In this document: positions 20,950 to 31,448 of the stretch, piece by piece | How the letters are laid out: each line of letters begins with the position of its first letter | Position numbering within the stretch: the first letter of the stretch is position 1 | Source of the DNA: Candidatus Saccharimonadota bacterium | GTDB taxonomy: Bacteria; Patescibacteriota; Gracilibacteria; UBA4473 | Direction of reading: 5' to 3' | Length of the DNA stretch: 32,000 nt | NCBI GenBank assembly: GCA_965228485.1 | Contig: OZ245819.1 | Coordinates: forward strand, 1,230,001-1,262,000 | Program-made: the position numbers and the translations under genes | Notes under the pieces: generated by a model | What the model was told of the DNA's origin: nothing | The model's database searches: none | The model's input: the letters and a program-made list of their open reading frames with translations, nothing else

Positions 20950-22173
20950 TTACTTTGAATTCAACTTTGTTACCTGAGAGACTCCCAAAAGAGAAAGCCC
21001 TGCCATTAGAAAAAGTGTGATAAAGAGCCATTGTGGACCTTCTGGGAAAATATAAAACAGCGGAATAAAGATGAAAAAAGGGATAATATAGGCGGTTTCA
21101 ATAATCCACCATCGAATATGAGATCTTTCGTAGGTGTCTTTTTCGTGAAGCCATTTATAGATTTCATTATCGTGAGGAACACCAATAGACTGCCAGTTTA
21201 CTTTGTAGAAGAAATCTATAGACAGAACCGCTAGAGGAAAAAAGGAAGCTGCTCGGCAGAGGTTGATGAGACTCCCTCTTAAAGCTCCTTTTTTTAGGAG
21301 TGATTTTGTGGATTTCTGTTTTTGGTCAATTTTTTTCCCAATGGAATAGGCAATTATCATCGATAGTAATGATGAAACTCCAATTAAAATGCTCATTGAG
21401 AGCAGATTTTTTACAACTAGAACAAGAAATAATGGCCAAATAATCCAGAGTACTGCATCCTGAAATACCCATGCAGCCTGGGAAGTGTAGAGGGCTTTGG
21501 GAGTGTTTTTAATAGTATCAACCGCAAGCTTTTTTGGGGTATAGGGTACTTTTATTTTTTCGTCTGGCGTAAACATTAAGACAATTCCCCCACAAAGGAA
21601 GAATCCGACGGCAGCATAAGAAGCAATGGAAATTCCATATTGGGTAGTTAGAAAGGCTCCGACGATTGGAGCTAGTAGTGCGGCCATAAGAATAGCAATC
21701 TGAAGATAAGCGATAATTTTTCCGGATCGTTCACGGTTAAGATGATGAGTGAGAAATATATCGTATGAAATCTCAAATAAAACCATTCCAAAGGCTCGTG
21801 CCGCTAAAAAGGGGACCATATGTATAAGGTCTTGATTGAAATTTCCAGTCATAATAATTGGAATCGATAGCCAAAAAATAGACGAAGTTATTGTCATAAT
21901 GGCCATGGAGTGTTTCAGTCCGAGATGTTGAATAAACCAACCGACAAAAGGATGGACTACCGCAAATAGAGTTTGCCACACAAGGTAGAATGTACAAATC
22001 TGCCAGATCTCATAGTTTAGACTTGTATAAAGGTAAAAGGGAAGTGCCAATGAAAGCATGCTTTTTCCCAAATTTCTGAATAGTTGGAATAGTCCTAATT
22101 CCAATAGCTCTGCATCCATGTGTAGGTGGAAGAGATGATGAAAATTGGAGTTAGGGGATTTGTATCGAGTCAT
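20950..22173 (-). CDS. MFS-like polytopic transporter, paralog A
   Basis: 11-12 predicted TM helices. Clear full-length similarity to the 30174-31448 product (FHHLFHL, LNY.(I/L)WQIC, GLKHS, SYDIFL(T/S)HHLN, LLQIAI, TPDEK, YKW(L/I).EK(D/N)T.ERSH). Confidence 0.7.
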   Translation of the reverse strand: MTRYKSPNSNFHHLFHLHMDAELLELGLFQLFRNLGKSMLSLALPFYLYTSLNYEIWQICTFYLVWQTLFAVVHPFVGWFIQHLGLKHSMAIMTITSSIFWLSIPIIMTGNFNQDLIHMVPFLAARAFGMVLFEISYDIFLTHHLNRERSGKIIAYLQIAILMAALLAPIVGAFLTTQYGISIASYAAVGFFLCGGIVLMFTPDEKIKVPYTPKKLAVDTIKNTPKALYTSQAAWVFQDAVLWIIWPLFLVLVVKNLLSMSILIGVSSLLSMIIAYSIGKKIDQKQKSTKSLLKKGALRGSLINLCRAASFFPLAVLSIDFFYKVNWQSIGVPHDNEIYKWLHEKDTYERSHIRWWIIETAYIIPFFIFIPLFYIFPEGPQWLFITLFLMAGLSLLGVSQVTKLNSK

Positions 22174-25419: not shown

Positions 25420-25561
25420 AATAAATTTAGTTAATAAGTTTTTTTAGATAATTAAGGTTCATTTTTAATTTCTGGCTTGTCCAGAATCTGCTATTGACCA
25501 GACTCTGGACGAAACTTGTATTATATAAGTTTGAGTTTTGCCAGAGATTTAGACAGGTTCT

Positions 25562-25814: not shown

Positions 25815-26237
25815 TTACTTGGGCCAAGAGACGAAATACTTATCGTCTTTTGATTTTTTGTACCATTCAGGGAAGATGATTGAGATTTTTCCCTGAGTTT
25901 GAAGCGCAAAAAATTCAGCTCTATTTTTGGTAATTGCACAGCCATAAGGTTGGCCTTCTTTGGATCTTTCGGCTTCAAATTTTTGGATTAATGCTTTTCC
26001 GACACCGTTTTCTAATGAAAGTACAGAACCGAGTTCAGCATATTGCTGGCATGGGGGTCTTCTAAAACAAAAGAATCCAGCCAGCTGTCCTTGCTGATTT
26101 ATTCCCACAAACCAAGACTCAAAACTTTGTAGAATGTCTTCAACATTTTGAGCAAGCATGGTGCCCTTTTCTACATGAGAATTCATGGCCGAAATCATTT
26201 CTTCGGCGAGTATTTGATCTGGGTGAATAAATTCCAT
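25815..26237 (-). CDS. Small GNAT-family acetyltransferase (possibly a short N-acetylglutamate-synthase-like enzyme)
   Basis: 140 aa. The GNAT core is LAGFFCFRR...AELGSVLSLENGVGKALIQKFE. Its layout resembles the acetyltransferase domain of ArgA and short NAGS proteins. The arginine-gene context supports this but does not prove it. Confidence 0.7.
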   Translation of the reverse strand: MEFIHPDQILAEEMISAMNSHVEKGTMLAQNVEDILQSFESWFVGINQQGQLAGFFCFRRPPCQQYAELGSVLSLENGVGKALIQKFEAERSKEGQPYGCAITKNRAEFFALQTQGKISIIFPEWYKKSKDDKYFVSWPK

Positions 26238-26252
26238 AGTTAATAAATAGAT

Positions 26253-26293
26253 AAAAAAATATCACTGTCCTAAAGTAGGGAAGTGATATTTTT
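26253..26293 (-). terminator. Terminator hairpin of a candidate Arg attenuator, directly upstream of the GNAT gene
   Basis: Minus-strand RNA: AAAUAUCACUUCC-CUACUUUA-GGAcAGUGAUAUUU, followed by UUUUUUUAU. This is 13 bp with one bulge and a U7 tract ending about 15 nt before the GNAT ATG. Confidence 0.5.
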
Positions 26294-26321
26294 GAATAAA
26301 ATATTTGTTCATTTTTTTAGA

Positions 26322-26378
26322 TCACTTCCAACGATAACGGCGGCGACGAGAATGAAGATAAAGTTTTGGGTAGTTCAT
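26322..26378 (-). promoter_or_regulatory. Candidate 18-codon Arg-rich leader peptide ORF (MNYPKLYLHSRRRRYRWK)
   Basis: The ATG lies 2 nt after the stop of the kinase gene (TAAccATG). It has four consecutive Arg codons, CGT CGC CGC CGT, plus a fifth. Its last codons and stop (UGG AAG UGA U) are complementary to the 5' arm of the downstream terminator. Confidence 0.4.
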
Positions 26379-26380
26379 GG

Positions 26381-27295
26381 TTAAGCAGCATTAGCATAAT
26401 CCCATTCAGGAACTTTTAATTTTCTTTCTTGAATAAAGGCCTCAAGTAGTTCTAGTTGTTTTTCTGTAAGTGGCTGACCAGTGATTCTTGTCCAATCTCT
26501 TTTCCCATTGGTTTGGTGAATACCCAATACTTCTTTTATACCTTCAGGTTTAGTTCCACCAATAATATAAGGGTCAACTCCATTATGTTTGGCTCTAATA
26601 CCAGCAATAACTTTGGAGATTATGCCACCAGTGGTGGTTTGCTTCTCGCTGCTCCAGGTATAAGCATCAACCATTTTGTTTAATTCTTCTAGCGTATCAA
26701 AACCGAGTAGGTGGTTAATACTCACTCTTCCGAATGTGCGTCGCTTGTTTTTATTGTTTTCATTGCTTCTGAGACCGTTTTCCCCGGTCATATAACAAAC
26801 TTTTGTCGCTTTTAAAATGCTGGCTACATGAGCGGCTAATTGATCATTATCGCCCCAAGTAAGTTCCGAGGTAGCCACTACGTCAGTTTCGTTAATAACC
26901 GGGACGATATTTAGGTCGTGATATTGACCGATAGCCGTCTTAAAAGCTTCCTGTCCTCTGTGTTGCTTGAGCTGAGAATGAGAGAGGGTGATGTGGTCAA
27001 CGGTTTCTTCTCCAAAAATTTTCTGAAAGTAACCAAGTACTTTTTTATTTCCCATGTTTGAAGCGACTTGTTTTACCGATTGTGGAATTGGGGTATCATT
27101 ATTGTAGTCTTTTCTCCATGAGACGAATTTATCAAATCCATTCATACCTTCAGCAACTGATCCAGAGGCGATGATTACTAGATTTACTTTTTCAGTAACC
27201 TCTTTGAGAGTGGCTAATATAGCTTCTCTAACTTCTGAATTATGAATTTGTTCTGAGCCAAGTTTGATGACGACTAATTCTTTTTTTGATTCCAT
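26381..27295 (-). CDS. Amino-acid kinase family protein, glutamate 5-kinase (ProB)-like, without a PUA domain
   Basis: LVVIKLGSE, LVIIASGSVAEG, IVPVINETDVVATSELTWGDNDQLAAHVA and TTGGIISKV align by eye with ProB motifs. The C-terminus is short and not PUA-like. Confidence 0.8.
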   Translation of the reverse strand: MESKKELVVIKLGSEQIHNSEVREAILATLKEVTEKVNLVIIASGSVAEGMNGFDKFVSWRKDYNNDTPIPQSVKQVASNMGNKKVLGYFQKIFGEETVDHITLSHSQLKQHRGQEAFKTAIGQYHDLNIVPVINETDVVATSELTWGDNDQLAAHVASILKATKVCYMTGENGLRSNENNKNKRRTFGRVSINHLLGFDTLEELNKMVDAYTWSSEKQTTTGGIISKVIAGIRAKHNGVDPYIIGGTKPEGIKEVLGIHQTNGKRDWTRITGQPLTEKQLELLEAFIQERKLKVPEWDYANAA

Positions 27296-27310: not shown

Positions 27311-27399
27311 AAAAAAATACCCGCTAGGTCTATTTAGCGAGTGATTGAATTTTGACTATGCCTGTTTATACACCAAAAATCACTCGCTATTTAAGCGGG
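27311..27399 (-). terminator. Long terminator-like stem-loop in the 5' leader of the kinase gene
   Basis: Minus-strand RNA: the lower stem CCCGCU/AGCGGG and the upper stem UAGCGAGUGAU/AUCACUCGCUA are followed by UAUUUUUUU. The structure ends 16 nt before the kinase ATG. Confidence 0.45.
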
Positions 27400-27434
27400 C
27401 GACGAGGTGCGGGAACAGAAACAGTATATGTCAT
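27387..27434 (-). promoter_or_regulatory. Candidate 15-codon leader ORF (MTYTVSVPAPRRPLK)
   Basis: ATG at 27434. The in-frame CGT CGC codons sit immediately 5' of, and overlap, the lower-stem arm CCCGCU. The ORF shares the 9-mer CTCGTCGCC with the 26322-26378 leader. Confidence 0.3.
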
Positions 27435-27444
27435 TTCGAGAGCT

Positions 27445-27472
27445 ATCCTATTGTGAATTGAAAACTTGTCAA
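27445..27472 (-). promoter_or_regulatory. Candidate promoter for the kinase/arginine operon
   Basis: Minus strand: consensus TTGACA (27472-27467), a 16-nt spacer, then TAGGAT (27450-27445). The predicted start is only a few nt before the leader ATG. Confidence 0.4.
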
Positions 27473-30173: not shown

Positions 30174-31448
30174 ATGCCACAAAAAGCTATCAATGCCGAT
30201 TTTCATCACCTGTTTCATCTAAAATTTGATAAAGAGATGGCAGAGGTGGGCTTCTATCAACTATTTTTCTATCTTGGAAGGAACTTAGTGGTTTTGTCGC
30301 TCGCATACCATATGTATGTGAATCTTAATTATGATCTTTGGCAGATATGTTTTTATTTTTGTTTGGGGCAATTTATGTTTTTTGCTATGGCTCCTTTTGT
30401 GGGGGCGGCTATTCAAAGACTTGGATTAAAACACTCTATTGCGGCTCGTCCTTTGGGGCTTTTTGTGTTTTGGTTAGCGTTGCCATATGTGCTTGTAATC
30501 GATTTTTGGCAATCTATGCTTTATATGATTCCTTTGTTTTTTATTCGAGGATACTGTGGAGGAATGTCTTTGTTGTCTTATGATATTTTTCTCTCGCATC
30601 ATTTAAATAAGCAAAATAGAGGGAAATCTTTGGCTTTGCTTCAGATTGCAATTATGGCTTCTACGGTTTTAGCTCCTATTATTGGGGGATTTATTACCGC
30701 TTGGGCTGGGTTTGTTTGGACTACTTATGCTGGACTATTTTTCTTTGGAATTTCTGGATGTGTATTATTGCTGACTCCTGATGAGAAATTTAAGTTTCCT
30801 TATACCATTAGTGAATTTATTCATGATACTAGAACCGTTATTCCAAAACCTTTGGCTTATGCTGAGTTTGGAAGAGTTTTTTTTGATGCGGTAATTTACC
30901 TTATCTGGCCAATTTTCTTGGTAGTGGCGGTTAGTGATATTTCTAAAATTGGTCTTCTAGCAGGGCTTTCTTCAGGTGTAGCGATGGGAATTGCTTATTG
31001 GATGGGGAAACAAATGGACAAGAAGGGTGCTGGAAAGGTTAATGTGGCTATTCGTCGAGGGGCTTACCGATCTATGTTACTCAATTTTGTGCGAGGAGTT
31101 TGGTGGGAACCCGTTACTTTAGGGATTATCGATAGTGTTAATAAGATTAATGATCAAACGATCAAAGTTCCGTATGATATGCAGTTCTATAAATGGATAA
31201 ATGAAAAAAACACTCTAGAACGTTCTCATGCGAGACTTTTTTTAGATCAGGGAATCTATTTACTCGCTTTTGCACTTGGAGTTCTAGCCTTTTATTATTG
31301 TACGAACACAACGGCAGTATTTATTGCTTGTTTTTTGCTCGGAGCGATGAGTTTGTGGTTTACTCAACAGATTTCTGAAGTAGGGGAAGAAGTCGAAATT
31401 GTACGATCTGAAACAAAAAGAGTCATAAAAAAGAAATCTAAACGTTAG
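30174..31448 (+). CDS. MFS-like polytopic transporter, paralog B
   Basis: Full-length similarity to the 20950-22173 product (the same conserved blocks) plus a Lys-rich C-terminal tail. Confidence 0.7.
   Translation: MPQKAINADFHHLFHLKFDKEMAEVGFYQLFFYLGRNLVVLSLAYHMYVNLNYDLWQICFYFCLGQFMFFAMAPFVGAAIQRLGLKHSIAARPLGLFVFWLALPYVLVIDFWQSMLYMIPLFFIRGYCGGMSLLSYDIFLSHHLNKQNRGKSLALLQIAIMASTVLAPIIGGFITAWAGFVWTTYAGLFFFGISGCVLLLTPDEKFKFPYTISEFIHDTRTVIPKPLAYAEFGRVFFDAVIYLIWPIFLVVAVSDISKIGLLAGLSSGVAMGIAYWMGKQMDKKGAGKVNVAIRRGAYRSMLLNFVRGVWWEPVTLGIIDSVNKINDQTIKVPYDMQFYKWINEKNTLERSHARLFLDQGIYLLAFALGVLAFYYCTNTTAVFIACFLLGAMSLWFTQQISEVGEEVEIVRSETKRVIKKKSKR

Follow-up and report, generated by a model that had tools for sequence, protein, structure and literature searches.

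Which signal controls the arginine biosynthesis genes of a bacterium of the Patescibacteria is the question raised by a locus of Candidatus Saccharimonadota (assembly GCA_965228485.1, contig OZ245819.1, positions 1,230,001 to 1,262,000; this whole stretch of 32,000 nucleotides (nt) is called the window hereafter), in which argG and argH follow an amino-acid-kinase-family gene on the minus strand. Arginine biosynthesis is a textbook case of control by a repressor, ArgR. Directly behind the kinase gene of the window lies a short open reading frame (ORF) with a run of arginine codons, followed by a hairpin and a U-tract, which an earlier reading of the sequence (the original prediction) took for an arginine-sensing transcription attenuator. 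Our analysis favors that reading with a probability of about 0.8: the element, referred to as attenuator 2, would be a functional ribosome-mediated attenuator responding to the supply of charged tRNA-Arg, and the prediction now finds comparative support in orthologous loci, in the replacement of whole helices in one of them (L005) and in the recurrence of the design at about 40 related loci.

Results

The leader ORF behind the kinase gene and its alternative hairpins

The kinase gene ends with TAA at 26383-26381 and is followed by two nucleotides (CC) and by the ATG of leader ORF 2 at 26378, whose codons (ATG AAC TAC CCA AAA CTT TAT CTT CAT TCT CGT CGC CGC CGT TAT CGT TGG AAG TGA) encode MNYPKLYLHSRRRRYRWK and end in a TGA at 26324-26322. 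Arginine takes five of the 18 codons, four of them consecutive, compared to 3.8% in the genes of the window. Moreover, neither strand of the window, which has 37% G+C, holds any run of at least three CGY codons (CGC or CGT) besides CGTCGCCGCCGT, and runs of four such codons are expected about 0.006 times per window.

The end of the leader and the hairpin behind it are complementary to each other, since GGAAGTGAT (26329-26321) is the exact reverse complement of ATCACTTCC (26287-26279). The 5' arm of the terminator hairpin comprises 13 nt (AAATATCACTTCC, from 26291), and the hairpin is followed by seven T in total (26259-26253), the first three of which are able to pair with upstream A residues. 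The first arginine codon lies 19 nt 5' of segment 2, the antiterminator strand that includes the leader stop codon, while the start codon of the next gene, encoding a protein of 140 amino acids (aa), is 16 nt beyond the U-tract in a region that is itself unpaired. The original prediction had correctly placed the leader 2 nt past the kinase stop, at coordinates that the sequence confirms, and had recognized the conspicuous arginine run and the complementarity of the stop-codon segment to the terminator arm; its hairpin with seven U was also borne out, although the arm starts at 26291 and not at 26293, and the description "AUUU + U7" counted U residues twice.

The two structures proposed for this RNA are mutually exclusive and both are far beyond what shuffled sequences form. 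The terminator reaches -15.0 kcal/mol (z=-6.9) and the antiterminator, in which GGAAGUGAU pairs with AUCACUUCC, reaches -13.0 kcal/mol (z=-4.5), and in neither case was the energy equaled by any of 200 shuffles. Besides, the duplex between segment 2 and the 5' arm of the terminator has an energy of -13.2 kcal/mol against -4.4 +/- 1.7 kcal/mol in 300 dinucleotide shuffles, none of which was as good (z=-5.1). When the footprint of a ribosome was modeled, a ribosome on the first or second arginine codon freed the antiterminator strand and a ribosome on the stop codon covered it.

Conservation of leader 2 in orthologous loci

The kinase and the 140-aa protein are near-orphans that have a single close relative apiece in a collection of 5.8 billion proteins, and ArgG was therefore taken as the anchor for related loci. 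The relatives of the window's ArgG, by which the organism is placed, carry the labels Gracilibacteria/Peregrinibacteria. Three orthologous loci carry both leader 2 and the upstream leader 1 described below: a Logan assembly (L001), a metagenome-assembled genome (MAG) from Crystal Geyser (L043) and a MAG labeled Gracilibacteria (L005). Contigs Ga0210026 and Ga0210012 belong to the organism of L043. Their leader 2 peptides (MNFPNLYLHTRRRRYRGE, MIYSKYFLHARRRRYRRR and MDYTKLYLHARRRRYRCAG, respectively) have the form (L/Y)(Y/F)LH(S/T/A)RRRRYR with a terminator behind, and leader 2 begins 0-3 nt past the stop codon of the upstream gene in all orthologs, even though the upstream gene is a different one in L005. 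Across the four sequences, codons 11-16 (RRRRYR) show only synonymous changes at the third position. The terminator of L005 is unrelated in sequence (AUCCCCGCAG/CUGUGGGGAU) and the 3' end of its leader is changed to GCGGGG, so that the stop-proximal segment still pairs with the terminator arm; in other words, segments 2, 3, and 4 were all replaced together by unrelated sequences that are still complementary. Helices were judged sequence by sequence rather than by column-wise covariation; MAFFT loses the register of replaced helices. The original prediction had pointed to the orthologous spacers as the place where the ORF or its arginine run might prove to be absent, and both are kept in L001, L043, and L005, the alignment of the spacers showing a conserved run together with the compensatory helix replacement in L005.

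Two further features of these spacers can be mentioned. In L001 (1112-1150) and L043 (5262-5305), a hairpin between segments 1 and 2 (1:2 hairpin) that includes the arginine codons is directly followed by U6 and a second U7, a U-run that is absent from the window and may be a pause site of RNA polymerase that synchronizes transcription with the ribosome. An extra mini-ORF (MNKYFIQKYHFPTLGQ, 26262-26312, minus strand) spans the spacer and the 5' arm of the terminator in frame with leader 2, but it is not conserved among L001, L043, and L005 and is therefore probably fortuitous.

A further predicted attenuator upstream of the kinase gene

The sequence 5' of the kinase gene predicts a further attenuator (attenuator 1), which the first reading overlooked, which has the four-segment design of the textbook examples and which we rate as the stronger of the two. 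The ATG of leader ORF 1 (ATG ACA TAT ACT GTT TCT GTT CCC GCA CCT CGT CGC CCG CTT AAA TAG) lies only 10 nt past the -10 hexamer of a promoter-like site, so the transcript would be nearly leaderless. In an alignment of the four sequences the TGAC of the -35 hexamer, the T-A-n-n-n-T of the -10 hexamer and the ATG are invariant, whereas the spacers vary. The whole region (27311-27472) is kept in L001, L043, and L005, including an almost invariant block of 40 nt, and the corresponding leader peptides are MNNLALVPAPRRPLN, MQNLFLVPAPRRPLN, and MNTSTFVPAPRRPLN.

Folding of attenuator 1 gave -38 kcal/mol for the whole leader (z=-5.0), -19.4 kcal/mol for the antiterminator alone (z=-4.7) and -10.3 kcal/mol for the terminator (z=-3.9), and in each of the four orthologs the 1:2 hairpin, whose 5' strand holds the arginine codons, reaches about -10.5 kcal/mol. 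Once a ribosome was placed on the first arginine codon of leader 1, the minimum-energy fold contained the 2:3 antiterminator (masked full-length fold, -21.7 kcal/mol), while with a ribosome at the stop codon the terminator was the sole structure formed. In addition, the upper stem of the terminator covaries across the four sequences (CUA/UAG, UCUAA/UUAGA, UCUA/UAGA, and UUGA/UCAA).

Arginine-codon leaders at other loci encoding ArgG relatives

In a comparison set of 80 loci encoding relatives of ArgG, 32 carry an ATG-initiated mini-ORF with at least three consecutive arginine codons, followed by a hairpin and a U-tract, just 5' of argG or of the gene preceding it, and a relaxed scan added roughly seven to ten more, for a total of about 40. 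Within the 300 nt 5' of ArgG, a short ORF with a run of at least three arginine codons was found in 22 of 79 loci, and runs of any other amino acid in at most four. The carriers are mostly Patescibacteria by label (Gracilibacteria, Peregrinibacteria or Peribacteria, Saccharibacteria, Magasanikbacteria, and Parcubacteria) together with Balneolaceae, and the relaxed scan found no convincing arginine leader in the loci of Francisella and most Pseudomonadota.

The leaders with terminators stand before argG, argF-argG-argH, GNAT-argG or argS. Balneolaceae leaders end in LRRRR(R)P/SxGV and a terminator precedes argF-argG-argH in the cultured Rhodohalobacter sulfatireducens WB101 (L044, Table 1) and also in L031, L034-L036, L038, L041, and L042; a GNAT gene follows the leader in L009 and L030; and in a MAG of the Parcubacteria group (L029, 1770-3852) the leader MNKSQINSLRRRRNPEAMLRVVC and its terminator precede argS. 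As the leaders thus precede different genes of arginine metabolism (argF-argG-argH in L044, GNAT-argG in L009 and L030, and argS in L029), their association is with arginine and not with one gene.

Ribosome modeling of 36 candidates showed that with the A site on the first arginine codon a median of 68% of the nucleotides of the terminator 5' arm are sequestered by upstream sequence, and that the median is 0% for a ribosome whose A site has reached the stop codon. A control with mononucleotide shuffles on the paired arm nucleotides discriminated poorly, and duplex energies compared to dinucleotide shuffles were used instead: the duplex between segment 2 and the terminator arm was better than the shuffles in 35 of the 36 candidates (mean z=-2.3), pooled P values overstating independence because the candidates fall into families of related sequences. 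The same logic is carried by helices of at least a dozen unrelated sequences. Column-wise analysis of the Balneolaceae antiterminators with RNAalifold gave only a consensus helix of five base pairs with two covarying pairs.

The codons of the arginine runs are CGC or CGT in 94% of cases (117/125), compared to 33% CGY among the arginine codons in the genes of the same loci, and the non-CGY codons of the runs remain arginine codons (AGA in L049 and L010, CGA in L019 and L027). This bias could reflect the isoacceptor most sensitive to starvation (tRNA-Arg ICG) or a constraint at the RNA level.

Gene content of the cluster

On the minus strand of the window, the order is a gene for an SLH-domain protein, the promoter-like site, attenuator 1, the amino-acid-kinase gene, attenuator 2, the 140-aa gene, a 77-aa ORF, argG, argH, a LysE-type exporter, an MFS transporter and argS (Table 1), and no further convincing intergenic terminator was found on this strand from the kinase gene to argS. 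The kinase matches Pfam AA_kinase (8.9e-20) and reaches 104.6 bits with the proB profile TIGR01027, under the cut-off of 186 bits.

The product of the 140-aa gene, which the original prediction had labeled GNAT, is probably a divergent GNAT acetyltransferase, although no strong match backs the label: the profile evidence consists of Pfam Acetyltransf_1 (E=0.19), NCBIfam PRK07757 (E=0.004, 17 bits versus a cut-off of 154 bits) and a PDB profile match to GCN5 (E=0.0035). Its AlphaFold2 model has a pLDDT (predicted local distance difference test) of 43.5, too low for use, and in L009, L029, and L030 the corresponding place is taken by true GNAT genes.

The 77-aa ORF has no family match, and its C-terminus, kept in L004 on the upstream side of the 140-aa gene (L004 1-59; 79% identity over 19 aa), argues for a real small gene of shuffled position. 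In L004 and L043, argG directly follows the 140-aa gene. The spacer of 142 nt before argG in the window (25420-25561, minus strand) holds a palindrome (CCAGAGTCTGG) and a hairpin (CAGATTCTGG..CCAGAA) with no U-tract. Paralogous MFS genes are found in the arginine cluster (20950-22173, minus strand) and 8 kb away (30174-31448, plus strand), both with ..FHHLFHL.. near the N-terminus.

The stop codons of the window are 21 TAA, four TGA and three TAG. A reassigned UGA (code 25 or 4) was considered, given that relatives are labeled Gracilibacteria, and was ruled out: the ORFs are full length with table 11 and four of 28 end in TGA, so the standard bacterial code applies. Leader 2 and the 140-aa gene share a reading frame in the window (141 nt), which they do not in L001 (134 nt).

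Table 1. Coordinates of the predicted regulatory elements and genes (positions in the window, except for the last row).
Feature	Position	Strand	Description
Promoter-like site for the whole cluster	27445..27472	minus	TTGACA-16-TAGGAT, 10/12 matches
Leader ORF 1	27387..27434	minus	Encodes MTYTVSVPAPRRPLK; regulatory codons CGT CGC at 27404-27399
Attenuator 1 RNA	27311..27403	minus	Four segments; from folding and ribosome masking
Attenuator 1, segment 1	27403-27394	minus	GUCGCCCGCU; holds the arginine codons
Attenuator 1, segment 2	27389-27378	minus	UAGCGAGUGAUU; holds the stop codon
Attenuator 1, segment 3	27346-27335	minus	AAUCACUCGCUA
Attenuator 1, segment 4	27326-27319	minus	UAGCGGGU; then U7 at 27317-27311
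Amino-acid-kinase-family gene	26381..27295	minus	304 aa, glutamate-5-kinase-like, without PUA domain; between the two attenuators
Leader ORF 2	26378-26322	minus	18 codons, encodes MNYPKLYLHSRRRRYRWK
Arginine run of leader 2	26348-26337	minus	CGT CGC CGC CGT
Fifth arginine codon of leader 2	26333-26331	minus	CGT
Attenuator 2, segment 2	26321..26329	minus	GGAAGUGAU; antiterminator 5' strand, spans the last leader codons and the stop codon
Attenuator 2, segment 3	26287-26279	minus	AUCACUUCC; inside the 5' arm of the terminator hairpin
Attenuator 2, terminator hairpin and U-tract	26253..26291	minus	AAAUAUCACUUCC...GGACAGUGAUAUUU; U-tract 26259-26253
140-aa gene	25815..26237	minus	First gene behind attenuator 2; probably a divergent GNAT acetyltransferase
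77-aa ORF	25795-25562	minus	
argG	25419-24145	minus	
argH	24133-22823	minus	
LysE-type exporter	22857-22192	minus	
MFS transporter	22173-20950	minus	
argS	20912-19230	minus	Closes the cluster, about 5 kb downstream of both attenuators
Leader of Rhodohalobacter sulfatireducens WB101 (cultured)	L044 4705-4840		MKLNTHKTFATLRRRRPMGV; before argF-argG-argH (region L044 4705-5910)

Discussion

The elements of the switch, their mutual exclusivity, their geometry, their conservation and their co-variation are read directly from the DNA, and from them we infer leader translation, stalling at arginine codons and regulated termination as follows. Two attenuators in series would control argG, argH, the kinase gene and the GNAT-like gene, with a reach that possibly extends to the exporter genes and argS, both attenuators reading the supply of charged tRNA-Arg. 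The position of the leader 2 start codon 2 nt after the kinase stop suggests translational coupling, and a ribosome that ends the kinase ORF would re-initiate there on the 18-codon leader. When arginyl-tRNA is plentiful, the ribosome would reach the UGA and cover GGAAGUGAU, leaving AUCACUUCC to pair with GGACAGUGAU in the terminator hairpin, which together with the U-tract would end transcription 16 nt 5' of the next gene. When arginyl-tRNA is scarce, the ribosome would stall at the first CGU/CGC codons, 19-20 nt 5' of GGAAGUGAU, and the free GGAAGUGAU would pair with AUCACUUCC as soon as the latter is transcribed, so that no terminator forms and RNA polymerase reads on. Attenuator 1 (27434-27311) would act likewise, with two arginine codons and a 1:2, 2:3, and 3:4 design, and the serial arrangement would multiply the response.

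Several observations weigh against this proposal. In the window the terminator of attenuator 2 is slightly more stable than the antiterminator (-15.0 versus -13.0 kcal/mol), and regulation must therefore depend on co-transcriptional order, that is, on kinetic precedence, on which the trp attenuator likewise relies. In leader 2 of the window, segments 1 and 2 form a weak hairpin (-6.8 kcal/mol, z=-0.45) that does not beat the shuffles, and the three orthologs have stronger ones (-13.2, -8.5, and -17.4 kcal/mol). A ribosome stalled on the fourth or fifth arginine codon would itself mask segment 2, and read-through could therefore result only from stalling at the first two or three codons. Neither leader has a Shine-Dalgarno sequence, so that initiation rests on an assumed coupling at leader 2 and on a leaderless start at leader 1. 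Moreover, leader 2 is known in four distinct orthologs only: a scan of metagenomes for the DNA pattern added none, its matches being three copies of the organism of L043 and one chance match in a membrane-protein gene. Finally, the CGY bias of the arginine runs could be in part a constraint on the RNA rather than on coding, and this bias together with the conserved residues other than arginine (LYLH, VPAP..RPL) allows for contributions at the level of the RNA or of the nascent peptide.

The conserved residues lead to the rival explanation that survives best, which we nevertheless consider unlikely, namely that the leader, like TnaC or the fungal arginine attenuator peptide, arrests the ribosome as a nascent chain or senses free arginine. 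High arginine would then hold the ribosome at or near the stop codon, keep segment 2 covered and favor termination, with hungry codons playing a secondary role. The regulatory sign would still be right, poly-basic and proline-rich stretches can slow ribosomes, and residues other than arginine are conserved with synonymous changes in both leaders (VPAP-RRPL in leader 1 and LYLH-RRRRYR in leader 2). However, the arginine run is the sole feature common to the peptides across families, some of the conserved flank (CUUCAY) sits in the 1:2 pairing region, and stalling at hungry codons already explains every element of the system.

It is still less probable that the alternative structures govern how the downstream gene is translated or how stable its mRNA is, as in speF of Salmonella, where pausing at arginine codons of orf34 sets RNA structure and decay (PMC6386406). 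The terminator hairpin does end 16 nt 5' of the start codon, a position compatible with such control, but the region of the start codon is unpaired and a U-tract of five to eight U stands right behind the stem in nearly every candidate, a feature that is needed for intrinsic termination and not for sequestration.

We give very little credence to a constitutive terminator of the kinase gene with a coincidental arginine ORF and a separate promoter for the downstream genes. Such a terminator would agree with the place of the hairpin downstream of the gene end, but just 16 nt lie between the U-tract and the next start codon, orthologs retain the ORF and its arginine run, L005 even behind a different upstream gene, the antiterminator complementarity has a z of about -5, (CGY)4 is expected 0.006 times per window, and the design is found again in about 40 loci. 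A trans-acting factor that chooses the structure, be it an RNA-binding protein, an uncharged tRNA acting on a T-box or a small-molecule aptamer, is equally improbable, for although T-boxes regulate arginine genes in some Firmicutes (PMC1262725), the leaders are too short for a T-box, the conserved structure is limited to three or four short segments and Rfam gave no T-box or riboswitch match at either the gathering or a permissive threshold.

The principle of ribosome-mediated attenuation is classical, and what is new here is the amino acid and its pathway, the tandem layout with one internal and translationally coupled element, and Patescibacteria as host group for the mechanism. Like the enterobacterial leaders trpL, hisL, leuL, thrL, pheL, and ilvL, attenuator 2 has a small reading frame in which codons for the end product of the pathway stand in tandem; common to both are also overlapping 2:3 and 3:4 pairings, to which attenuator 1 adds a clear 1:2 hairpin, a stop codon in or beside segment 2 and an intrinsic terminator that directly precedes the first structural gene. 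Unlike them, the system described here uses arginine, belongs to a patescibacterial lineage, has two attenuators per operon, of which attenuator 2 is internal and begins 2 nt after the upstream stop, carries attenuator 1 on a nearly leaderless transcript and has no sequence similarity to the Rfam leader families. Searches of Rfam (15) with the window and 11 related loci gave only tRNAs and noise, with no match to leader families (Trp, His, Leu, Thr, Phe, and others), T-boxes or riboswitches at the gathering threshold or at E<=10.

Attenuators for Trp, His, Leu, Thr, Phe, Ile/Val, and Cys have been described in the searchable literature, and none for Arg. A comparative study of 2005 reported attenuators for His, Thr, and Phe and, for arginine, T-boxes only (PMC1262725). 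Our own search found no arginine-codon attenuator of arginine biosynthesis; it did not cover subscription journals, so an earlier mention is possible. Among the nearest systems is the speF leader (orf34, or speFL) of Salmonella and E. coli, in which low-arginine pausing of the ribosome at two consecutive arginine codons of an upstream ORF selects an alternative mRNA structure (PMC6386406). It differs in that speF encodes an ornithine decarboxylase and not an enzyme of arginine biosynthesis, the nascent peptide senses ornithine, and the output is Rho-dependent termination and decay by RNase G, with no pair of intrinsic terminator and antiterminator.

Leaders with cognate codons precede synthetase genes in pheM-pheST and in cysS, the latter with an upstream ORF of Cys codons (PMC8632094), as the arginine leader precedes argS in L029; they concern other amino acids, and in the window about 5 kb separate the attenuators from argS further downstream, with a co-transcription that is only putative. 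The fungal arginine attenuator peptide (upstream ORF of arg-2 or CPA1) resembles our system in that an upstream ORF mediates arginine feedback on a pathway gene via the ribosome. However, it is eukaryotic, its specific nascent peptide responds to free arginine, and its targets are translation and the decay of mRNA; it has no run of arginine codons, no terminator and no sequence similarity to the leaders found here. Besides, argL of E. coli is a translated small ORF that overlaps the start of argF in another frame (bioRxiv 10.1101/511675); like the leaders here it is a small ORF upstream of an arginine gene, and translating it has an effect on that gene, but it differs in this overlap, and no arginine-codon run or terminator switch has been described for it.

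Beyond the window, we consider the chances slightly better than even that arginine-codon attenuation is a widespread and undescribed class, which would be the main arginine-responsive control of argG/argH, argF, GNAT genes, and argS in Patescibacteria (candidate phyla radiation, CPR) and Balneolaceae, replacing ArgR or acting alongside it, and which in the lineage studied here would comprise two attenuators in series, one of them internal to the operon and translationally coupled. The same design occurs in the cultured Rhodohalobacter sulfatireducens, and the mechanism is therefore directly testable. Moreover, the combination of an arginine-run mini-ORF and a switchable terminator provides a signature to annotate arginine-responsive genes in metagenomes. 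If true, a conserved class of arginine attenuators would fill the arginine gap among the classical attenuators and would be one of the first concrete examples of cis-regulation in the uncultured Patescibacteria with their reduced genomes, in which it would imply a coupling of transcription to translation.

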